Numbered from the stretch's first letter, positions 7,650 through 57,306 are shown. The stretch is DNA of 64,000 nt from a virus (IMGVR_UViG_2974555739_000001:16149-80148), one strand, 5' to 3'. Program-made: numbers and translations. Notes: a model not told the origin generated them from the letters alone.

Positions 7650-9431
7650 ATGAGTGTAATTAAAAGTTATCAGATAAATCTTGATATATCAAAAGATATT
7701 AAGAACAATCACTTTTCATTTAATCAAAATGATACGAACACCGCGAAGATTACAGTTAACTTGACTAACAATAAAATTCCAGTTTCACTCACCGGATCAA
7801 CAGTACGTTTTGCGTTTTTAAAAGCTGATGGAAAAAGAGTTTATCAAAACGCGACGATTGTTAATCCAACAGGCGGTATCGTTGAAGTAATGTTAAACTC
7901 ACAAGTTCTAGCCGTACCGAAAAGAGTCAAAGCAGAAGTAGAACTTTATTTCGATGGCACACAACAAAGCGCTGTAACAAGACCGTTTGAATTTACTGTT
8001 GAACGATCTATCTTGAGTACAGAAGCTATTCAAAGTTCTAGTGATTTCCCCATTATACAAGAATTAAAAAATAAGTTAGAAAAGGTTAATGATGTCAATT
8101 TAGACACGTTGGTTAGTGTCGATTCTTTATCTAAACGAAACAAGAATATAATTAGCTTAATGGAATATGAAAATCTTAAAGTGTCTGTATCAGGCGGTTA
8201 TGATTGGAGTCCGGTATTCAATAAAGCTATCAATGAAGCGGCGAAAGTTTACGGAATAGTAGTTGCTCCTTTAGGAAATTTTGATTTTTATAACCCTATA
8301 TCATTTCCACCAACAACATCATTTTGCGGAGCGGGGGAAAGTCCGACAGGTACAGTTTTGAATTACAAAGGAAATACAGGTGTTTGGGCCATTAAAACAT
8401 CAGGTACACACCAAAGAAATAAACTAAGTGGTTTTAGACTTGAGTTAAATGGAAAGGCAAACGGTATTTTGTTAGGTGATTTTTACGCTAATTTACCAGA
8501 TAATTCCATACCTCTTGACTTCGATTTGAACACGATTTCAGTATCAGGTATCGGTTCTTCTTATACAGGAATCACTACAGTCAATGCATCTCATTATACC
8601 TTCCATAAAGTTCGTACTGGATACGGAAATTCAACAGGTAGAGGTGTTTGGATTACAGCAGACGGATACAATAGTGGAGTTGCTATTTTTACAGATTGTA
8701 CTTTCGGAAGAGTTGATGCAACAGCGATAGGATTAGAAGTTAGTGGGACGGTCAATATGGATACATTCGAATTTAATGGAGGTTGTTATTACGGCGGTAA
8801 AACACCTATCAAATTAGGGAGCAACAACGGAAATTTTGTTCGTAACATCCGTCTATATGGTCATGCAGAAGCAAGAAATGTTGGACAGACAGTAAATGTA
8901 GTTGAACTTTGTAATGTTCTTGGTGGAGAAATGACTCTAACTTATTCGGGATTCAGTGAACCGAACGTAAATGCTGTTTCTTTCAAAGGGAGTGTTGAAC
9001 GTTTCAACATTTTAAGTGGAGAAGCTAACGCGATTAAAGGGACGATTTTTAAGGATGACGGAGCTACATTGATTGAAGATTGTTTGTTGCAACCACCTAG
9101 ATTAACAAATGGTTCTGATTCAGCTGTTATTTTTTCTGCTGGTTTCAGTGATAAAAATTTTAAATTTTCTACTAGAAGATTCATTACCGAAAACATTAAC
9201 ACGAAATACCTCTATAATATTGATGGTATTAACCGTATTAGTTGGGGAACTCAAAACCCAATGTTAGAAAGTACATTCCAGGGGAATAGGGGGGATTATA
9301 GACACAATACATTACCTACAGAATTAGGGGCGACTGGAAGTAAATATGTGGTAAATGGGTGGAAGTGTATTTCATCCGGAACAGGCACTAATGCAAAATG
9401 GGTAGAAGATAGAGGTTTAACAGGAAATTAA
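7650..9431 (+). CDS. Tail spike/depolymerase: BppU-like (DUF2479) N-terminus plus pectate-lyase-like beta-helix
   Basis: N-terminal F.QND.NTA.I.V.L...FLKADG pattern; central G/N/I-rich beta-helix after a YDWS..FNKAI motif; C-terminal GWKCISSGT..W motif. Confidence 0.7.
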   Translation: MSVIKSYQINLDISKDIKNNHFSFNQNDTNTAKITVNLTNNKIPVSLTGSTVRFAFLKADGKRVYQNATIVNPTGGIVEVMLNSQVLAVPKRVKAEVELYFDGTQQSAVTRPFEFTVERSILSTEAIQSSSDFPIIQELKNKLEKVNDVNLDTLVSVDSLSKRNKNIISLMEYENLKVSVSGGYDWSPVFNKAINEAAKVYGIVVAPLGNFDFYNPISFPPTTSFCGAGESPTGTVLNYKGNTGVWAIKTSGTHQRNKLSGFRLELNGKANGILLGDFYANLPDNSIPLDFDLNTISVSGIGSSYTGITTVNASHYTFHKVRTGYGNSTGRGVWITADGYNSGVAIFTDCTFGRVDATAIGLEVSGTVNMDTFEFNGGCYYGGKTPIKLGSNNGNFVRNIRLYGHAEARNVGQTVNVVELCNVLGGEMTLTYSGFSEPNVNAVSFKGSVERFNILSGEANAIKGTIFKDDGATLIEDCLLQPPRLTNGSDSAVIFSAGFSDKNFKFSTRRFITENINTKYLYNIDGINRISWGTQNPMLESTFQGNRGDYRHNTLPTELGATGSKYVVNGWKCISSGTGTNAKWVEDRGLTGN

Positions 9432-9452: not shown

Positions 9453-10160
9453 ATGCTCACTTTAGTACATGAAGATATTTGCGTTTATTTGGATTATATG
9501 ATTTCGCAAAGTCTACAGAAGACAGGTAAAAATTTATCCTTCATAAATGATTCTATTGAAGGTATAGCTAATTTGGGCCGCTTTGAAATTGAAGTGGTTC
9601 AAGGTTCTTTTGCGAGATTCACAATTAAGATCGAAACACAAACAATCACTTTCAATACTCCTTTAGTTGTTGGTGACAAATTAAGCATTGATTTAGATAA
9701 AAACATCTTTAAAAAGAACGGATCGATGATCTTCACTGATGCTATTTTAACATTAGAAGATAACTCTTACGTTAATATCAATGTTGATTTTGTAGGTGAC
9801 GGTACTGCTGCTGTAACTTACTTCTATAAGTATTATGAAAAAAGAACAGATGATTTAATGTTTGTCGATAGTTTATCTTACGACAAAAGTATCGAATACT
9901 CAAGTAGAACAAACATCCGAAATGAAAAGAAGATCGTCGGTAATAAAAAAGAAACATTCAGTTTTTCTTTAAGTCTTATTTGGAATGAGGATCAAGCTGA
10001 ATTGATCGATGACGAATTCCGTTTACGTCTGATTGATGAAGAAGGATTTCCAATCGAAACAATGGCTGGATGTATAATCACTTCTGAACGAAAAGGTTCT
10101 TCTTCTAATGGTGGAGATTTCACTTACGAAATTTCAGGAAGTTTCGAAAAAATTTATTAA
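9453..10160 (+). CDS. Tail component whose C-terminal ~110 aa resemble the major tail tube protein
   Basis: Visual alignment: DSLSYDKS/DSFSFNEN, ETFSFSLSLIW/EYTFDISQLY, ISGSFEKIY/ASGSYSKRF. Confidence 0.5.
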   Translation: MLTLVHEDICVYLDYMISQSLQKTGKNLSFINDSIEGIANLGRFEIEVVQGSFARFTIKIETQTITFNTPLVVGDKLSIDLDKNIFKKNGSMIFTDAILTLEDNSYVNINVDFVGDGTAAVTYFYKYYEKRTDDLMFVDSLSYDKSIEYSSRTNIRNEKKIVGNKKETFSFSLSLIWNEDQAELIDDEFRLRLIDEEGFPIETMAGCIITSERKGSSSNGGDFTYEISGSFEKIY

Positions 10161-10232
10161 AGAAATGAGAAATGCGTTCAAAACCCTTGTATTAATGGAT
10201 GCAGAACGGAAAAGTTCAATATTTTTTAATTA

Positions 10233-10706
10233 ATGGAGGGTTTTGGAATGGCAAAGGTTAACAAGTTCTCAAGTAAGGTAAGTAAATTAAAACGTACAGG
10301 TAAGGTACACTTTAACACTGATGAAGGTGAAGTGTTGGAATTCGTGGTTGAATCACGTAAAAGTGAAGCTATCGATGAAATTAATGGACAATATGATGCT
10401 CTTAAACCAAAAGTGCCGACTAAGAAATTACCAGCTCGTAACGGTTTTAAAGTGGTTGAGCAGCATGACGATCCTGAATATAAAAAAGCTTTAGGTGTTA
10501 TTCAACGTAAGAACTTAGCTCATTTAGCTTTACTGTTCTTAGCTGAAGACGAACGCCCTGAAGGAGAAATCGAAGAACAAGTTCAGCAAATTATTGACAT
10601 TGAACTTGCTGGATTCATCGGAAAAATCGTTAACAAAGGTCTTGAGATTTCAGGTCTAGGCGGCGAAGATGATGAAGAAGAGTTCGAAGAAGTAAAAAAC
10701 GACTAG
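10233..10706 (+). CDS. Tail assembly chaperone (gpG-like)
   Basis: 157 aa ending in slippery A-AAA-AAC two codons before the stop. Confidence 0.7.
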   Translation: MEGFGMAKVNKFSSKVSKLKRTGKVHFNTDEGEVLEFVVESRKSEAIDEINGQYDALKPKVPTKKLPARNGFKVVEQHDDPEYKKALGVIQRKNLAHLALLFLAEDERPEGEIEEQVQQIIDIELAGFIGKIVNKGLEISGLGGEDDEEEFEEVKND

Positions 10707-47199: not shown

Positions 47200-47239
47200 T
47201 AAGAAATCCCCCTTCGTTGTTACTAAAAGTTACTTTATC

Positions 47240-47267
47240 ATTATAATACAGAATTGAAATAAAACAA
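47240..47267 (-). promoter_or_regulatory. Sigma-A-like promoter for the replication block
   Basis: TTGTTT-N16-TATAAT on the minus strand. Confidence 0.55.
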
Positions 47268-47428
47268 GCCTTTTTATTACATTTGTGATAATTTTGAAAT
47301 ATTTCTCGTTTTTTTGAAATAGTACGTGCAATATTTAGATTATCGCCCATATATTAGGATTATGAAAAGGAGTTATTAACTACTTAACAACTTCTTCTCA
47401 CCTACTTATTAAAAAGGAGTGATGAAGC

Positions 47429-47695
47429 TTGTCTAGCAAGTACATCCGTAAACCTGTAGTGTTCAATCGTGAATCTGCTTGGCATATGAGTATCTTGAAA
47501 CGAATTGAAGGTGAATCGAACAACTTTTCCGGTTATGTAATGTCTATCCTTAAAGAACACTTCGATACAAAATTACCACTTGAGCCAATTGTTAAGTCTG
47601 ATCCGGTAGAAAAAGAAAAAGAGCAACCAAAATCAGCTGCTCCTTCCTTTCAAAAACCCACTAATAATTTACCGCCGAAACTTTTTGGAAAATGA
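47429..47695 (+). CDS. Ribbon-helix-helix-like DNA-binding protein
   Basis: RKPVVFN strand, helix, then NFSGYVMSILKEHF second helix. Confidence 0.6.
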   Translation: MSSKYIRKPVVFNRESAWHMSILKRIEGESNNFSGYVMSILKEHFDTKLPLEPIVKSDPVEKEKEQPKSAAPSFQKPTNNLPPKLFGK

Positions 47696-47795
47696 ATTCC
47701 TGGTACTTGCAACTTTTGAATATGAGTAGCATAAACTGTTCGTGTAATCGAATTTATGAGTGGAGCGAACAGTTTAAATACCACTTTATACCCAA

Positions 47796-47861
47796 TTAGA
47801 AGGGCCATAACCCCACCAATAAACCTGTTAAACCGATACTGATTAAGATTGCTTCCACCAT
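47796..47861 (-). CDS. 21-aa hydrophobic peptide MVEAILISIGLTGLLVGLWPF
   Basis: Manual translation; AAGGGAGTG RBS; consensus sigma-G promoter immediately upstream. Confidence 0.6.
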   Translation of the reverse strand: MVEAILISIGLTGLLVGLWPF

Positions 47862-47893
47862 CTTTAAATCACTCCCTTAATTGTTGTTGAACT

Positions 47894-47924
47894 TAGTATG
47901 TACACCTTATCCAAATCCTATTCA
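47894..47924 (-). promoter_or_regulatory. Consensus sigma-G (forespore) promoter
   Basis: TGAATA-N18-CATACTA matches the B. subtilis sigma-G consensus. Confidence 0.7.
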
Positions 47925-47942
47925 TGAAAAGGAGAATGACAA

Positions 47943-48047
47943 ATGTTTTCATTTTTGAGTGTCGCTGGTATGTGGATTGTATGGCATACCGTTGGAATTC
48001 CTGCTTACATCAAATACATTAAAAAATTGGAGGAAAACAAAAAATGA
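47943..48047 (+). CDS. 34-aa single-TM peptide (MFSFLSVAGMWIVWHTVGIPAYIK...)
   Basis: AAAGGAG RBS; ATGA overlap with the next gene. Confidence 0.65.
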   Translation: MFSFLSVAGMWIVWHTVGIPAYIKYIKKLEENKK

Positions 48048-48514
48048 AAAAATATGAAGTGATCCCATTTAATGAGTTTATGTCAGTGGAGAAATTTGAC
48101 CTGGAAGCTATTGTGAAAAACGAATATAACCGCAAAGGCATTAAAAAGCTACAGAAGCTTTCAGTATTCTTGTGGACGGTTAGTGCTTCATTTACAGCTA
48201 AAGCAGCTTCAGCGGCAAGTACGGTTTCTACAGCAGCTAGTTCTAGTCAATCGTTCGGATTATGGTCGCATACAACTGGATTGTTTGGAGTATTTCAAGA
48301 AATGGCAATGGTCTTAGGAGCTTTAGCTATCTTTGGTGGACTAATCACAATGATCTTTAAAAAACGTGCTGGTCAGAAGATAATTTTAACAGCTGCAATT
48401 GCTATTGGTGGTTGTTTCCTTGTACCATCAGCGATTATGTTAGTAGCAATTATAGGAAACATGCTTAATGATACGTTATCACAAGCGTTCTCAAGCATGA
48501 CAATGGGGAGGTAG
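48044..48514 (+). CDS. TrbC/VirB2-like membrane protein
   Basis: Leader with an A-K-A-A cleavage-like site followed by two hydrophobic helices separated by KKRAGQK, a pilin-like topology. Confidence 0.6.
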   Translation: MKKYEVIPFNEFMSVEKFDLEAIVKNEYNRKGIKKLQKLSVFLWTVSASFTAKAASAASTVSTAASSSQSFGLWSHTTGLFGVFQEMAMVLGALAIFGGLITMIFKKRAGQKIILTAAIAIGGCFLVPSAIMLVAIIGNMLNDTLSQAFSSMTMGR

Positions 48515-48516
48515 TC

Positions 48517-48657
48517 ATGATTAAATTCATTATTGGTTCATTCGTTGGCTTTAGTGTAGGTTTTGGTATGGCTTTATCTTACCTTGTTGAAGCTTCTGAT
48601 TCATCAATGTTAATTAAAACAATTTCTATCGTGAAGGGAGTGCTTGAAGCGTTATGA
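48517..48657 (+). CDS. 46-aa membrane peptide (MIKFIIGSFVGFSVGFGMAL...)
   Basis: GGGAGG RBS; ATGA overlap with the ATPase start. Confidence 0.65.
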   Translation: MIKFIIGSFVGFSVGFGMALSYLVEASDSSMLIKTISIVKGVLEAL

Positions 48658-51146
48658 AAATAACATTAAATTCCAGGGAAAATAAACCATTAGATAATCC
48701 TCAAATGGTCATGAAGAAGAAATTAACATTGGGATCACCTCAAAACGATCCCCTACTTCTTCCTGTTGCTGTTGAACCTAAGTTACCAATAGTTAGACCT
48801 TCTACGGATGTAAACGTCAATGTGCGCCAATTTGAAAAGCCTGAAGCTAAACAGAAGAAAAAGTTAACTTTACCATCCTTTAATTTTCAACTAGCCGAAC
48901 CGATGAACACAACTTTTTCTGTAAAGCCTGTTCCTACAACAGATAACGAAAAGATAAACGTATTCATAGAAGCTTTCGCAAATACTTACAAAGAATTTTT
49001 TAATCAAGTCCGGAATTTCTCGTACGGTGAAGATGGTTTGTCTATACCTCAACAGGATAAAATTTTCATGGAAACAGTTATAGACAACAAAAAGGTGCAA
49101 CAATTCATTACAACCAATGAGCACCAGGAAGAATATGTAGAGCAGCAAATAGGATTTACATGGTACAAAGCTCAAGTATTAAAGCAGCATAAAGAAGTTA
49201 TTGATTTCGATGTGGATAAGTCAATTATTTATGAATTCACACTGAAATTCACACCGGCCCTAACATTAAAACCACATGAAAAGCTGTCAGATAAGATGTT
49301 ACGTGATTTCCTTGAGCTTAGTAAATTGTTCAGGGATGATGAAAAAGCGCTGATCCAGTTTGGATTTCAACCATCAGAAAACGATTGGTATAAAGAAGGG
49401 AACGTTCAACTGAAGGACTTACCAACTAAAATCAAGAAGAGTGAGTACAGTACTAACAAGATGGGATATTCAGCGTTTGATTGTTGCTTGAGACTAATTG
49501 TTCAAAGTAACGATAAAATACGCTTAGAAACGATATCACGCGGTCTAGTTAGTACGTTGAAACGGTTAGAACATGACAATGAACTTATTGCCAAACAGAT
49601 AAAACCAAAAAGAGCCAAACAATTCTACAAACGTAAGGTATTGGGCCGCAAAGTAGATGTTCCTTTATCATTCAGAAAGCGGTTCATTTTAACGAACAAG
49701 GAAATAGCACACTTTATCGTACTTCCTAACCGATCACTTCAGAAAGATTATCACCTGGAAGTAGATGAAAAAGGTGTGACGGCTGTTGATCCGTCTTTAT
49801 TAGGAAAGAAAGGCATTTGGTTAGGTAACGGTAAAGTTAAAGGGAATGATGTTGCGGTTAAAATACCTGTTGATAATTTAGATCATCTTTGTGGAGCTTA
49901 CGCATTCATCGGTTCTAAACGTATGGGTAAAGATGTATCTTGTGCTAGGTTCATCATAGAAAACGCTAAACAAGGTCATGGTGCTATTATAGGTGATTGT
50001 ATTGATGAAGCAGGAAGGGGATTAGCTGATTTGATTAGGCAAAACCTACCTGAAAATAAAGTGATAGATGTTGATTTGTGCGATACTGAAAATCCTATTT
50101 ACTTTGGACTTGACGATGTAATTGAATCTATAGGTAGTGGTGGTATTGATGTTATTTCTAATGATTTAGTTCAAATTTTAGACCTGGATAAGAACTATAC
50201 ATCAAAGCAGCTTGCTCGTCTTGTGGCAAAGGCATGTAAATGTAACCTTTATAATATGATGGTTTTCCTAAAGTCAGATAAAATAGCTAGAGAATTTCAA
50301 CAGAAAATCAAAGATGAAGGTAACGACATATTAGCTTTACAACTTGAACATGAGTATTTTGAAGCTAATCATTCATCAGCAGTTAAAGGAGCTGTAATTA
50401 ACCGTTTGGATGAAATGATGAATATGTCCATTATGAAGAATTTATTCGCTTGTCCTAGAAACAAAAAATTCGATCTCCAAAAATTTATCCAGCAGAACAA
50501 AGTAGTTCTGATTCGTATGAAGAAGACCGGTGGTTTCGGTGAAATGGGAACACGAGTAATTATGAATCTTCTGTTATTAAAAATATTTTGGTTGAAGAAA
50601 ATCAAAAAGACAGACAATGTTACTTTCACTGTATTTAACGAATTTCATCAATATGATACCGAACCATTCAATCGCACTTTATCGGATATGTTATTAGAAT
50701 CAGCGAAGTACAGATTAGGAACGTGTCTTGTATTCCATACACCCGAAAAAATAAATAGGATGTTATGGGAAACTATCCAGGCCGCTTCTACAAATTTCTT
50801 CATGTTCAAAAATACAAACCTTAACGTTTATCGTTCGTTGGTGGATCAGTTAAAACCATTTGATTTAGACGCTTGTTTCAAAACAAAAAAACACGAAAGT
50901 ATATATTTACCCTTCGTGAATGGAAAGCAGTTAGAGCCTATATTTATGAAAATGTTACCTACTGACAGATTAGATCACACTTATGATAGTGAAAAACATA
51001 CAGCTCTTTATGGTACACCCTTACATTTAGTCGAGAAGAAAGTTTACGAAACTGAATTAAGAATGTACCAAAAAGAAGAACTTGAAGAAAAAGAAGAAAA
51101 AACTGAAGAAAAACCGAAAAAATCCAAAAAATCGAAGAAAAGTTGA
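48654..51146 (+). CDS. VirD4/TraG/HerA-like P-loop ATPase with degenerate Walker motifs
   Basis: AFIGSKRMGKD at Walker A position; FTVFNEFHQ at Walker B position; ESAKYRLGTCLVFH corresponds to E.RK..L.l.la.Q. Confidence 0.65.
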   Translation: MKITLNSRENKPLDNPQMVMKKKLTLGSPQNDPLLLPVAVEPKLPIVRPSTDVNVNVRQFEKPEAKQKKKLTLPSFNFQLAEPMNTTFSVKPVPTTDNEKINVFIEAFANTYKEFFNQVRNFSYGEDGLSIPQQDKIFMETVIDNKKVQQFITTNEHQEEYVEQQIGFTWYKAQVLKQHKEVIDFDVDKSIIYEFTLKFTPALTLKPHEKLSDKMLRDFLELSKLFRDDEKALIQFGFQPSENDWYKEGNVQLKDLPTKIKKSEYSTNKMGYSAFDCCLRLIVQSNDKIRLETISRGLVSTLKRLEHDNELIAKQIKPKRAKQFYKRKVLGRKVDVPLSFRKRFILTNKEIAHFIVLPNRSLQKDYHLEVDEKGVTAVDPSLLGKKGIWLGNGKVKGNDVAVKIPVDNLDHLCGAYAFIGSKRMGKDVSCARFIIENAKQGHGAIIGDCIDEAGRGLADLIRQNLPENKVIDVDLCDTENPIYFGLDDVIESIGSGGIDVISNDLVQILDLDKNYTSKQLARLVAKACKCNLYNMMVFLKSDKIAREFQQKIKDEGNDILALQLEHEYFEANHSSAVKGAVINRLDEMMNMSIMKNLFACPRNKKFDLQKFIQQNKVVLIRMKKTGGFGEMGTRVIMNLLLLKIFWLKKIKKTDNVTFTVFNEFHQYDTEPFNRTLSDMLLESAKYRLGTCLVFHTPEKINRMLWETIQAASTNFFMFKNTNLNVYRSLVDQLKPFDLDACFKTKKHESIYLPFVNGKQLEPIFMKMLPTDRLDHTYDSEKHTALYGTPLHLVEKKVYETELRMYQKEELEEKEEKTEEKPKKSKKSKKS

Positions 51147-51204
51147 CTTTAGTTTAACTTGAATTATCCAACTGTTTTAGTCAAGATTGACAGGAGGTGA
51201 ACTT

Positions 51205-51276
51205 ATGTTAACGATAATCGCGGTATCCTGGATCGTTTATATAGCAAATGAGCAATTAAAAAAGCCTTCCAATTAA
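51205..51276 (+). CDS. 23-aa hydrophobic peptide (MLTIIAVSWIVYIANEQLKKPSN)
   Basis: AGGAGGTG RBS; ends at a bidirectional terminator. Confidence 0.6.
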   Translation: MLTIIAVSWIVYIANEQLKKPSN

Positions 51277-51290
51277 GGAGGGCTTTATTT

Positions 51291-51863
51291 TTATACTACG
51301 TGTTTCCAGGTCTTGCGATTAACAATTTGTTTAATAGTGCTAGGTCTAACATCAAACATATTAGCTAAAGAATACGAATTGTATAATTTATCTCTCGCTT
51401 TGAAATGTTTTCTTATAAAACGAACATCATCTTCATTTAATTTTGTGTTTATGTTATCTGATCCATAATGAATAGGTGGTTTCAATCCTCTATTTTTGTT
51501 AGAAGCAAGACCAGTTTTAAAAGCATGTTTCATATTTTCACTTCTTGTAGACCATTCTAAATTTGAATGTTCATTGTTTTCTTTTTTTCCATCAATGTGA
51601 TTCACTTCTTTTCTGTTGATCGGATCATCGTTCTTAATAAATGAAAAAGCAACCAATCGATGTATTGCATGATTTTTTCTGATTTGTTCTTTGTTCGTTA
51701 AAGTAATCATATGGTATCCATAACTATTTACTTTAGGTTTCATGATACGACTTTTATAAGTTTTTCCTTTTATGACCCTAGTTAAACTTCGGATACGTCC
51801 GTAATCACTAACTTGATAATATCCTTCGTATCCTTCTATATCCTTCCAAATTTCATTCTCCAT
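51291..51863 (-). CDS. NUMOD4-HNH homing endonuclease
   Basis: EIWKDIEGYEGYYQVSDYGRIRS; HRLVA..F; VNHIDG.K.NN...NLEW; C-terminal HTH. Confidence 0.92.
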   Translation of the reverse strand: MENEIWKDIEGYEGYYQVSDYGRIRSLTRVIKGKTYKSRIMKPKVNSYGYHMITLTNKEQIRKNHAIHRLVAFSFIKNDDPINRKEVNHIDGKKENNEHSNLEWSTRSENMKHAFKTGLASNKNRGLKPPIHYGSDNINTKLNEDDVRFIRKHFKARDKLYNSYSLANMFDVRPSTIKQIVNRKTWKHVV

Positions 51864-51925
51864 TCCGATCACCTCTATTATCATCATACCCCTGTAAATG
51901 TTTTTTATACACAAAAAAAGACGGA

Positions 51926-53000: not shown

Positions 53001-54851
53001 TTATAGATAAAGCTTTAATGTTCCTTGCAGCTTATCAATCTTATCATGAAGCATTTTAACTTCTTCTTGATGAAGTCGTTCAGCAGCATCAGCTTTTTCT
53101 AAAACGTTATCTAAATTCTTGCTCATTTCTTTGTTATGTTTAGCTATGATATCATTAGCTTCTTCAAATGCATCAAGTGTTTTCTGCTTGTTATCATTGC
53201 ATTCGTAAGCTTCTTCCAGCTCTTGTTTGTAAGAAAGAATAGCAGCTTCTAATTGATTAGCACGTTGCAATTCATCTTCATACAAACGTTTAAACTCATG
53301 CGCTTCACTTTCATAGCGATCACGTTCTTGAGAAACGTTGTCAAAATCATGTAATGTCTGTTCATATTTTTCGTTAATAGCAAAATGAGCAGCTTCGACT
53401 TCTCTTCTTTGCTTTAACACACGCTCATATGATTCATTGCGATTGTTGTAATCTTCTTCCAAATTAGTGTATCGCGCTGTTAATGAATCTAATTCTTTTT
53501 GTAAAAGTTGAGCTTTATCGACAATAGAATCACGTTCTGAAACCACTTGAGCAAATTGATCTTTTACATACTTAACGTTGCTATCTTTATGTTTGATGGA
53601 AGTTTGCAGCTGATTAATAACTGATTCTTTTTCCAATACTTTGTTTTCCCATGTTGTATTTAAAGTAGCAACAGCTTCTTCAAAACCTTCACGTTGTTGA
53701 TCCATTTGTTTCTGAATCCGTTTGATCTCCTGGTCACGAGAAGAAACTTGCGATTTATAGCTTTCAACTGTTTGCTCAAGATCAGTGATAACCTTGTCCA
53801 ATTTACTAACTTGTGAAGCTGATGTAGACGGTTTAATAGCAGTAGCCATCATATCTTTTGAATCCCCCTGTTGTTTCTTCTTAGTTGATACACCTTTGCG
53901 TTGATTTGAAATAACAGCGCTTTTAGTTGTATCAGTTAAACCATTTTCTTTCTTCCAACCATAATAAGAAGCGTTATTGAGTCTGAAGAATTTCATGATC
54001 TTACCGTTTGATTTACCTTCGTTACGCATTTTGTGATAAATTTCAACAGTCAATCCATTCAAAGGTTTTTTAGCGTTAAACATAGTAACAACACTCTCCT
54101 GTTTTTTAATATTTTTAGGACTAGGTTTTCTAACTACTTGTGCTCTCTCTTTCACTACGTTGTCGAATTGACCTTGACCTTTTAAATAATTTTCTAGCAG
54201 CGGTTTAACTTTGTTTTTGATAATACGCGAAACCTGGACTTGAGTAACGCCAATCAATTCACCAATTTCATTTTGCGTTTTACCATCCATCACAAGTTTG
54301 ACCACATTGACAGTACGTTCATCCAATGTTTCCAGGAACTCTTTTACAAAAGTATGGGAGTAATCGTCGAAATCACCAACTTGATCCGCTAGGGTAATGG
54401 GATCACCGTCATTTTCGTAAACAGTTTGTTCAATGAAAGCAGGATTTCGTACCTTCAAATAATATAATAACTCGTCTACTTCCGATAAGTCAAGCTCTAA
54501 TTTTTCAGCAATTTCTTCACGCTTCAATCCTTCGCATTCATTCATACGAAACTTAGCGGCCCATTCTTTCAAACGTCTAGGTGATTTAATAATACCATCA
54601 TCACGAATAAAACGTTGGATTTCACCGATCATCATAGGAACAGCGTAAGTTGACCACTTCACTTTAAAAGAATCGTCAAACTTATCGAAAGCTTTCAAAT
54701 AGCCAATAGAAGCTAATTGAAACAAATCATTGTTATCATAACCGCGATTCTGAAAACGATATACAACTGACCATATGAGCCTTAAATTACGTTGAACATG
54801 GTCATCCCTGTTTTCTAACACACCTTCAATCATTGTTTCAGTCTTATACAA
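53001..54851 (-). CDS. SigF/SigG-like sigma factor fused to an HTH and a long coiled coil
   Basis: N-terminal ~225 aa: DLFQLASIGYLKAFDKFD, WSTYAVPMMIGEIQRFIRDD, TQNEIGELIGVTQVQVSRI; then HTH-like segment and ~270 aa of heptads. Confidence 0.8.
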   Translation of the reverse strand: MYKTETMIEGVLENRDDHVQRNLRLIWSVVYRFQNRGYDNNDLFQLASIGYLKAFDKFDDSFKVKWSTYAVPMMIGEIQRFIRDDGIIKSPRRLKEWAAKFRMNECEGLKREEIAEKLELDLSEVDELLYYLKVRNPAFIEQTVYENDGDPITLADQVGDFDDYSHTFVKEFLETLDERTVNVVKLVMDGKTQNEIGELIGVTQVQVSRIIKNKVKPLLENYLKGQGQFDNVVKERAQVVRKPSPKNIKKQESVVTMFNAKKPLNGLTVEIYHKMRNEGKSNGKIMKFFRLNNASYYGWKKENGLTDTTKSAVISNQRKGVSTKKKQQGDSKDMMATAIKPSTSASQVSKLDKVITDLEQTVESYKSQVSSRDQEIKRIQKQMDQQREGFEEAVATLNTTWENKVLEKESVINQLQTSIKHKDSNVKYVKDQFAQVVSERDSIVDKAQLLQKELDSLTARYTNLEEDYNNRNESYERVLKQRREVEAAHFAINEKYEQTLHDFDNVSQERDRYESEAHEFKRLYEDELQRANQLEAAILSYKQELEEAYECNDNKQKTLDAFEEANDIIAKHNKEMSKNLDNVLEKADAAERLHQEEVKMLHDKIDKLQGTLKLYL

Positions 54852-56703: not shown

Positions 56704-57306
56704 ATGAAGAAAATCGTAGCAACTACAGCATTAGCAGCTGCTTTACTAATTCCAACTACAAGTTTAGCCGCTACTACCTACACTGTACAACCAAATGATA
56801 CAATGTGGAAGATTGCAGTTAAGAATAAAGTAGGGGTACAAGAATTAATCAATGCAAATTCTTCGCTCAAGAATCCAAATTTAATCTATGTGGGCCAAAA
56901 GTTAACGATCCCCACACAAGATAGTTCATATGAGCAACAGGTTATTAAGTTAGTTAATGCTGAAAGAGCAAAGGCCGGTCTTAAACCATTAAAGGAAAAT
57001 TGGGAGCTATCGCGTGTAGCTGAATTCAAGTCGAAGGATATGAGGGATAATAATTACTTCGATCACAATTCAAAAACATACGGATCACCTTTTACTATGA
57101 TTAAAAATTTTGGTATCTCATATAAAACAGCAGGGGAAAATATTGCAGCTGGTCAGAAAACACCTGAAGAAGTGATGAAGTCGTGGATGAATTCACCAGG
57201 GCATAAGGCGAATATTCTCAATGCAGGATATACACAAATCGGTGTAGGTTATGTTACCGGCGGTAGTTATGGTTCGTATTGGACACAACAATTTATTTCA
57301 CAATAA
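56704..57306 (+). CDS. Secreted LysM plus CAP/SCP domain protein (SafA/YkwD-like)
   Basis: Signal peptide; YTVQPNDTMWKIA...NPNLIYVGQKL.IP; VIKLVN.ER...GENIAAGQ..PEEV...WMNSPGH..NIL. Confidence 0.9.
   Translation: MKKIVATTALAAALLIPTTSLAATTYTVQPNDTMWKIAVKNKVGVQELINANSSLKNPNLIYVGQKLTIPTQDSSYEQQVIKLVNAERAKAGLKPLKENWELSRVAEFKSKDMRDNNYFDHNSKTYGSPFTMIKNFGISYKTAGENIAAGQKTPEEVMKSWMNSPGHKANILNAGYTQIGVGYVTGGSYGSYWTQQFISQ

Follow-up and report, generated by a model that had tools for sequence, protein, structure and literature searches.

The window analyzed in this study is a stretch of viral DNA of 64,000 nucleotides (IMGVR_UViG_2974555739_000001:16149-80148; all positions are counted from its first letter), which represents bases 16149-80148, i.e., the right 64 kb, of the Bacillus megaterium siphophage Stahl. 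The Stahl record comprises 80,148 bp with direct terminal repeats, and the nucleotide identity of the window to the B. megaterium siphophages Slash, Staley and Stills is 89-96%. The subject of this work is a cassette at positions 47429-51276, on which the Stahl genome paper is silent (PMC4541283). A sequence-only reading of this DNA had described it as an island of six plus-strand open reading frames (ORFs) within minus-strand genes, and all six (p88, p34, p156, p46, p830 and p23) were indeed found, with minus-strand ribonucleotide reductase (RNR) genes on one side, a minus-strand block of HNH, integrase and sigma genes on the other, and an intrinsic terminator predicted at the end of the island (51261-51286, plus strand). 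Five of the six ORFs (p88, p34, p156, p46 and p830) matched PHROG families of unassigned function (E-values from 1e-28 to 1e-268), and Pfam, NCBIfam and PADLOC scans of the cassette proteins provided no usable family. A scan of viral contigs with a single protein returned Stills and Staley only, and an Rfam search gave nothing relevant. Between Stahl and Stills, synonymous and non-synonymous changes numbered 16/8 in p88, 2/0 in p34, 42/16 in p156 and 13/4 in p46. The cassette ORFs are thus mostly under purifying selection, and their conservation extends to Slash, Staley, Stills, Basilisk-like phages and a Halalkalibacter prophage. The proposed translational coupling by ATGA overlaps holds for two junctions, p34/p156 and p46/p830, but not elsewhere; p88 and p34 are separated by 247 bp, in which we found a minus-strand gene, m21, that is described below.

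The largest gene, p830 (48654-51146, plus strand), encodes a soluble protein of 830 aa that was modeled as a two-domain VirB4-like ATPase, with predicted local distance difference test (pLDDT) values of 85 for the whole protein and 92 for the N-domain. Residues 1-73 are disordered, the N-domain spans approximately residues 75-380 and the ATPase domain approximately residues 376-775, and the tail is rich in Lys and Glu. An exhaustive phmmer search defined a family of 281 clusters at 50% identity, mostly of 700-900 aa. p830 alone retrieved nothing from the PDB sequences and no Pfam or NCBIfam family (including CagE_TrbE_VirB and AAA_10) at E-values up to 0.1-1; none of 58 family members matched a VirB4 model, and p830 itself did not pass the cut-off of Pfam TrwB_AAD_bind, T4SS-DNA_transf or TraG-D_C. 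The family profile, by comparison, matched HerA (2e-9) and TrwB (4e-4) among the PDB sequences. Remote family members of ~1000 aa (P0120, P0130 and P0141) passed the Pfam models TrwB_AAD_bind, TraG-D_C and DUF87, and the neighbors of p830 in the ESM Atlas, annotated as type IV coupling proteins (T4CPs), carried these same families together with DUF8128.

In structural comparisons, the N-domain proved to be the part that discriminates between the ATPase types. The C-domain (residues 376-775 of the AlphaFold model) aligned best with VirB4 (4ag5_A; Z 28.5, 335 residues, root mean square deviation (rmsd) 3.2), followed by DndH-C (Z 27.6), HerA (26.4) and TrwB (26.1), although these scores are effectively tied (within ~2 Z). 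The N-domain folded alone (residues 75-380) matched TrwK, the VirB4 of R388 (7o42_A; Z 15.9, 250 residues, rmsd 3.6), whereas the next-best structural match reached Z 8.1, and Foldseek agreed with VirB4 (2.5e-06). HerA chains aligned mainly to residues 370-775, and none was present in the best 50 structural matches of the N-domain, a missing match that is not by itself proof that p830 has no HAS-barrel. No hydrophobic 19-mer above threshold was detected anywhere in p830, hence it has no transmembrane (TM) anchor as in T4CPs. Because the N-domain matches TrwK/VirB4 so distinctly and a hydrophobic segment is absent, the modeled p830 has the VirB4 architecture and belongs neither to the membrane-anchored VirD4 type nor, probably, to the HAS-barrel HerA type. 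The VirD4/HerA-like ATPase of the sequence-only reading was thus placed in the right structural class (VirB4/VirD4/HerA), but its N-domain is VirB4-specific. We use the wording VirB4-like, not VirB4 family member, since no curated VirB4 sequence model matches.

Both nucleotide-binding motifs of p830 are unusual. The Walker A variant GSKRMGKD (residues 420-427; 49911-49934, plus strand) has Asp in place of Ser/Thr, and the Walker B variant FTVFNEFHQ (residues 658-666; 50625-50651, plus strand) has Asn in place of Asp next to the catalytic Glu663. When 80 family sequences were aligned, the position following GK and the one preceding the catalytic Glu were S-or-T/D in 63 sequences and D/N in 17, with no mixed form; the Walker lysine K426 and E663 were invariant. 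Such a strict paired swap of two Mg-coordinating positions suggests that catalysis has been retained and that the motifs are not in decay, and p830 is predicted to be active because the swap covaries strictly while K426 and E663 stay unchanged. The Slash copy of the ATPase gene is annotated as two separate ORFs owing to a -1 frameshift within a run of A close to codon 551 (~9000-9010 of the Slash locus, equivalent to ~50300 of the window), which could be either a sequencing error or a true inactivation of a dispensable gene.

The four small proteins encoded upstream of the ATPase could be characterized to different extents. p88 (47429-47695, plus strand) is a soluble protein of 88 aa (phrog_21197, 8e-61) and belongs to the family of gp31 of Bacillus phage SPP1 (BLASTP, 1e-09), with the motifs KPVvFN and NFSGYV and invariant residues K8, F12, F33, Y36 and V37 in the family alignment. 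The beta-alpha-alpha pattern for which it had been called a ribbon-helix-helix (RHH) protein can be read from its sequence, but profile searches did not confirm this assignment: the PDB gave no match and Pfam only a weak one to DUF3408 (best 0.015, 3 of 14 members). p34 (47943-48047, plus strand; phrog_21171, 4e-29) is a 34-aa peptide with a hydrophobic N-terminal half and a basic tail, whose gene overlaps that of p156 and which has positional equivalents in the Halalkalibacter krulwichiae prophage (locus L009, 53 aa) and in Basilisk (gp99). p46 (48517-48657, plus strand; phrog_16518, 1e-28) is a 46-aa peptide with a single TM segment (residues 1-24) in the VirB3 position; its gene overlaps that of the ATPase, and a homologue is present in L009.

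p156 (48044-48514, plus strand; phrog_13699, 6e-75) is a membrane protein with the topology of TrbC/VirB2 pilins, namely a long leader (a signal-like segment with Ala-rich AXA sites), and a two-helix TM hairpin (hydrophobic segments 79-107 and 109-142) whose helices are connected by a short basic loop, KKRAGQK; L43 and W44 of the leader are invariant in the family alignment. The term VirB2-like is a call from topology that no sequence search confirmed. p156 and the corresponding proteins of L009 and L014 had no match to PF04956 or PF18895 (TrbC/VirB2 and T4SS_pilin) at E-values up to 5, the p156-family profile found only noise in the PDB, and ESM Atlas leads from p156 to TrbC, T4SS_pilin and DUF4134 clusters scored <0.9. 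The proteins at the p156 position in L015, L017 and SPP1 (gp31.1 type) had TrbC/VirB2 and T4SS_pilin as their best Pfam matches, at sub-threshold E-values of 2e-4 to 0.1. What the p156 and gp31.1 types have in common is topology and short N-terminal motifs. These motifs, MIV(R/K)(I/M)NG and (V/I)I.F.(E/D)F(M/L), recur in pilin-position and VirB3-position proteins of different sub-clades (L015, L014, L013, SPP1 gp31.2 and the p156 family) and may represent a common targeting or docking signal.

The closest known counterpart of the cassette lies in SPP1. In a revisit of the SPP1 genome (Godinho et al. 2018, PMC6316719), gp32 was described as a non-essential protein (836 aa) for which HHpred indicated a resemblance to TrwB, VirB4 and FtsK, and gp31.1 and gp31.2 as TM proteins whose synteny with gp31 is also seen in Geobacillus phage GBK2; a trans-membrane translocon was proposed for the module of genes 31-32, which lies in early unit PE5 and whose role was left unassigned. 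Apart from that paper, our literature search on DUF8128, SPP1 gp32 function and VirB4-like phage proteins retrieved no functional study. Comparison of the two phages revealed the same gene order in SPP1 (31, 31.1, 31.2 and 32) as in Stahl: a gp31-type protein, a protein with a signal and a TM hairpin, a small TM protein and an ATPase of ~830 aa without TM segment. gp32 and p830 are homologous (5e-55) and both have the GKD/NE Walker variants, i.e., the D/N form. Stahl thus encodes counterparts of both gp32 and gp31, arranged as in SPP1 with TM proteins in between, and its cassette is an ordinary member of the module already noted in SPP1. The two differ in that gp31.1 has no detectable sequence similarity to p156, sharing only topology and a short N-terminal motif, in that gp31.2 has two TM helices but p46 one, and in that neither p34 nor the antisense m21 of Stahl was seen in the SPP1 region.

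A more distant relative is the gp27.9-gp27.3 cluster of SPO1, in which the homologous ATPase gp27.4 (906 aa; tblastn, 3e-9) follows three small TM peptides. It differs from the Stahl cassette in its canonical GKT/DE motifs (the T/D form), in having no clear pilin-topology protein, and in its additional neighbors, an actin-like partition protein (ALP_N, 2e-27) and a Replic_Relax protein (3e-12) that flank the ATPase. The sequence-only reading had referred to a similar Bacillus prophage cassette with a replication-relaxation partner and an FtsK ATPase and had noted both as absent here. Such a partner does exist in relatives, as SPO1 shows, and no Replic_Relax, FtsK_SpoIIIE or ALP gene was detected in the whole 80,148-bp Stahl genome.

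Taken beyond phages, the ATPase fold class, the pilin-topology protein and the small TM partners, encoded in the order VirB2-VirB3-VirB4, agree with the earlier proposal of a relaxase-less cassette related to type IV secretion systems (T4SSs). In the VirB2-VirB3-VirB4 core of these systems (R388 TrwL/TrwM/TrwK, 7o42 and 8rtd; C-domain of Thermoanaerobacter VirB4, 4ag5), the two-domain soluble ATPase matches p830, and the order of pilin-like protein, small TM protein and ATPase is the same; relatives of the cassette add sub-threshold TrbC/VirB2 matches and wall-hydrolase fusions. In contrast to that core, the cassette has no Pfam or NCBIfam match to VirB4, VirB3 or VirB2 and its Walker residues are swapped, the Stahl genome contains no VirB6, VirB8, VirB1, VirD4 or relaxase, and the carriers are lytic and temperate phages, not conjugative elements. 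T4CPs (TrwB/VirD4/TraD) and ATPases of the HerA/FtsK class, including defense HerA and DndH, resemble the ATPase domain of p830 in fold and in an inserted all-helical subdomain (Z 22-27), but p830 differs from T4CPs by the absent N-terminal TM anchor, from HerA by the apparent lack of a HAS-barrel and from the defense systems by the absent effector partner. A stand-alone operon of VirB2/B3/B4 type that serves DNA uptake and not conjugation is ComB2-ComB3-ComB4 of Helicobacter pylori, to which the cassette is alike in general terms. ComB cooperates with a second operon, ComB6-10, and no equivalent of the latter was seen in Stahl.

The distribution of the module was then considered. Homologues were detected by tblastn in 89 phage records, including Slash- and Basilisk-like phages, SPP1-like phages, GBK2, SPO1-like phages, SP-10, D6E and TP-84, and phages of Staphylococcus, Streptococcus, Lactococcus and Listeria were not among them. 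The hosts were all endospore-formers except for one phage deposited as a Microcystis phage, although this restriction may be no more than a consequence of how far tblastn reaches. This exception, Microcystis phage MaeS (MT362618.1, 79,995 bp), has p88, p156 and ATPase homologues at ~51% identity and looks like a Bacillus phage of the Slash/Basilisk type, so that the deposited host may be wrong. An ATPase homologue was also found on 39 plasmids, 32 of which were typed as non-mobilizable, and one 52-kb Bacillus plasmid retained the gene order of the cassette; large plasmids of Clostridium botulinum and C. sporogenes carry distant homologues (~23% identity) annotated as ATP-binding or hypothetical proteins. 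A sample of 401 Bacillota genomes yielded nine matches (E <= 1e-10), of which four extended over almost the entire length. Overall, the module is found repeatedly in phages, both lytic and temperate, as well as in prophages and plasmids, from Bacillus, Geobacillus and further spore-forming hosts. Its gene order in the cassette is also that of L009, L014, L015, L017, LY5 and Basilisk, and genes for a small protein of gp31 type, a protein with pilin topology and a small TM protein always precede the ATPase gene. In the prophage loci L009, L014, L015 and L012 the module lies at the prophage end after holin and amidase genes. In L017 and L012 a Peptidase_M23 domain is fused to the TM protein directly upstream of the ATPase, which recalls the wall hydrolases that are a hallmark of Gram-positive T4SSs. 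The L013 locus has a gene of the p88 family immediately after an ALP_N gene, as in a ParM-ParR arrangement.

The gap between p88 and p34 contains a gene that the sequence-only reading had overlooked. m21 (47796-47861, minus strand; preceded by a strong ribosome-binding site (RBS), AAGGGAG) would encode a hydrophobic, probably membrane-located peptide of 21 aa. All nine differences between Stahl and Stills are synonymous in the minus frame, the peptide is 75% identical in L009, whose ATPase is only 47% identical, and it is annotated as gp98 in Basilisk; m21 is thus strongly conserved in the Slash-Basilisk clade. A consensus of sigma-G/F type (GAATA-N18-CATACTA; 47894-47923, minus strand) lies 33 nt upstream of its start codon. 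The claim of a sigma-G promoter inside the cassette was therefore correct as to the motif, but the motif is on the minus strand in front of m21 and occurs at chance-level frequency: the perfect sigma-G consensus has two matches in 128 kb (both strands), approximately as expected from shuffles. Both hexamers are kept in four Slashviruses with a variable spacer; Basilisk and L009 lack the motif and have sigma-A-like boxes instead. Searches of the cassette for sigma-F, sigma-E and sigma-K consensus sequences gave nothing, and that for sigma-G gave this one minus-strand match.

The m21 transcript would probably end within the 3' part of the p88 gene, where there is a terminator-like hairpin of 14 pairs with a run of T (47616-47647, minus strand), and the transcript region folds with a z-score of -2.76. 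The m21 and p88 transcripts would overlap tail to tail, a layout that resembles a type I toxin-antitoxin locus, with a peptide shorter than the known Bacillus toxins. In the m21 3' region there is an inverted repeat, AAACTGTTC...GAACAGTTT (window ~47735-47780), and the Halalkalibacter prophage (~9100-9140 of L009) has a compensatory change in it, AAAATGTTC...GAACATTTT, a hint that an RNA stem may be conserved. A plus-strand ORF of 35 aa at 47692-47799 was rejected as a gene, as stop codons interrupt the Stills copy.

Several further features surround the cassette. The divergent intergenic region upstream of p88 (47200-47428, plus strand) has sigma-A-like matches with TTGAAA -35 boxes at 47254, 47294 and 47314, by which it may act as a promoter; they agree with the consensus only and are no commoner than in shuffled sequence. 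At the other end, p23 (51205-51276, plus strand; RBS GGAGGTG) lies within a 29-aa ORF starting at 51187 and could encode a 23-aa TM peptide. The ORF proposed earlier is present, also in Slash, Staley and Stills, but it is doubtful as a gene, with two synonymous and seven non-synonymous changes between Stahl and Stills, and no PHROG match was found. A NUMOD4/HNH homing-endonuclease gene follows p23 in Stahl (window 51291-51914, minus strand), whereas in Slash it separates p23 from the ATPase gene (9848-10351 of its locus, L001); it is absent in Staley and appears to be a mobile insertion adjoining the cassette. Further downstream, a minus-strand gene (window 53001-54851) encodes a 616-aa protein whose first ~220 residues match sigma factors of the SigF/SigG family (2.9e-58, short of the curated cut-off) and which carries a long C-terminal extension; this phage sigma factor could read the sigma-G motif at any time. 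Finally, a secreted LysM and YkwD/CAP-domain protein (spore_YkwD, 1.7e-60) is encoded at window 56704-57306 (plus strand), a type of protein that the Stahl genome paper calls rare in phages (PMC4541283).

On balance, we consider it probable that the Stahl cassette is a copy of the accessory module 31/31.1/31.2/32 of SPP1 and a pared-down phage relative of the VirB2-VirB3-VirB4 core of T4SSs. The role that we favor is that of a VirB4-driven membrane complex which, in the early phase of infection, serves as an accessory device of the envelope or for translocation. By analogy with VirB4 on VirB3, a p830 hexamer would dock on the cytoplasmic face of the membrane via p46, and perhaps p34, and would use ATP to insert, extract or polymerize p156 or to drive cargo through a p156-based channel; p88 might serve as a DNA-binding regulator or adaptor, and m21 might be a separately regulated membrane partner or modulator. 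If the operon behaves as in SPP1, it would be expressed early in vegetative infection and be dispensable, which would point to an accessory role such as envelope remodeling, export of a phage product or blocking of incoming DNA. The predominance of non-mobilizable plasmids among the carriers fits a relaxase-independent role.

Several points weigh against this interpretation. Canonical VirB4, VirB3, VirB2, VirB6, VirB8 and VirD4 profiles match no Stahl protein, and the near-tie of the C-domain scores does not separate VirB4 from DndH, HerA and TrwB. p156 is not linked by BLASTP to the gp31.1 type, which is the one that matches TrbC, and hhalign gave a probability of 0.15%. The Slash frameshift implies that the module can be lost or inactive. 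The hexamer, its membrane docking and any cargo are presumed, and the timing of the operon is that of SPP1, applied to Stahl by analogy.

Another possibility is that a membrane complex protects the cell, once infected or lysogenized, from the entry of other phage or conjugative DNA; it could be a decoy or plug, or a defense ATPase resembling HerA. The moron-like site after holin and amidase at the end of four prophages would agree with this, as would the frameshift in Slash, a pattern typical for accessory genes, and the resemblance of the p830 C-domain to DndH and to HerA of SIR2-HerA and DUF4297-HerA systems. The module is also non-essential in SPP1, and superinfection exclusion is among the roles that the authors listed as plausible for the uncharacterized early genes of SPP1 in general (PMC6316719). 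However, a nuclease or other effector partner is absent; the N-domain is of VirB4 type and probably not a HerA HAS-barrel, and p88, p156 and p830 had no PADLOC match at E-values up to 1. We regard exclusion as rather unlikely, and it would be a possible role of the VirB4-like complex proposed above, with which it is compatible, not a different machine. Alternatively, the ATPase could act on phage DNA as a plasmid-derived coupling protein or DNA pump recruited by p88, for membrane anchoring, partition or cell-to-cell transfer. This idea draws on the partition and Replic_Relax genes beside the SPO1 cluster, the ParM-ParR arrangement in L013, the TrwB_AAD_bind and TraG-D_C domains of remote family members and the T4CP annotation of ESM Atlas neighbors, but ALP, Replic_Relax and FtsK genes are all missing from Stahl, most plasmids with a homologue (32 of 39) are non-mobilizable, and DNA binding by p88 is only putative. 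Moreover, VirB4-type proteins are not known as DNA translocases in their own right, and such DNA handling seems very improbable.

The sequence-only reading had favored a sporulation-timed machine, switched on in the forespore or sporangium, that moves or tethers phage DNA so that the spore traps it. What speaks for it is the sigma-G/F consensus within the cassette with its hexamers kept in four Slashviruses, the SigF/SigG-family sigma factor and spore-related proteins encoded by Stahl, and the host range, confined to endospore-formers apart from the deposited Microcystis phage. Against it, the motif belongs to the minus strand, where it fronts m21 rather than the ATPase operon, its two perfect occurrences in 128 kb are at chance level, sigma-A-like boxes take its place in Basilisk and the Halalkalibacter prophage, the phage sigma factor could use it outside sporulation, and the host range may be a matter of tblastn reach. 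In addition, the SPP1 homologues are early vegetative genes (PMC6316719), and the B. megaterium strain used to isolate and grow Stahl is asporogenic (PMC4541283). The sporulation timing was thus not upheld, and we consider it very unlikely.

Our results show that a conjugation-type ATPase module is present in at least 89 sequenced phages, nearly all of spore-forming Bacillota and including the model phages SPP1 and SPO1, without an assigned job. This picture is now sharpened by the VirB4 architecture, by a very probable activity despite the odd Walker motifs and by the constant pilin-shaped and gp31-type companions, while relatives of the module recruit wall hydrolases or partition and relaxase genes. 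There is a slim chance that Bacillus phages including SPP1 and SPO1 carry a working minimal T4SS-like machine in which a VirB4-like ATPase, a VirB3-like peptide and a pilin-like protein work together, joined in some relatives by a wall hydrolase or relaxase-like protein of their own, and by which phage DNA or protein would cross the envelope, either to neighboring cells or into the forespore. If this is true, it would provide a new route of virus transmission or persistence, such as receptor-independent spread to neighbors or entry into the forespore.

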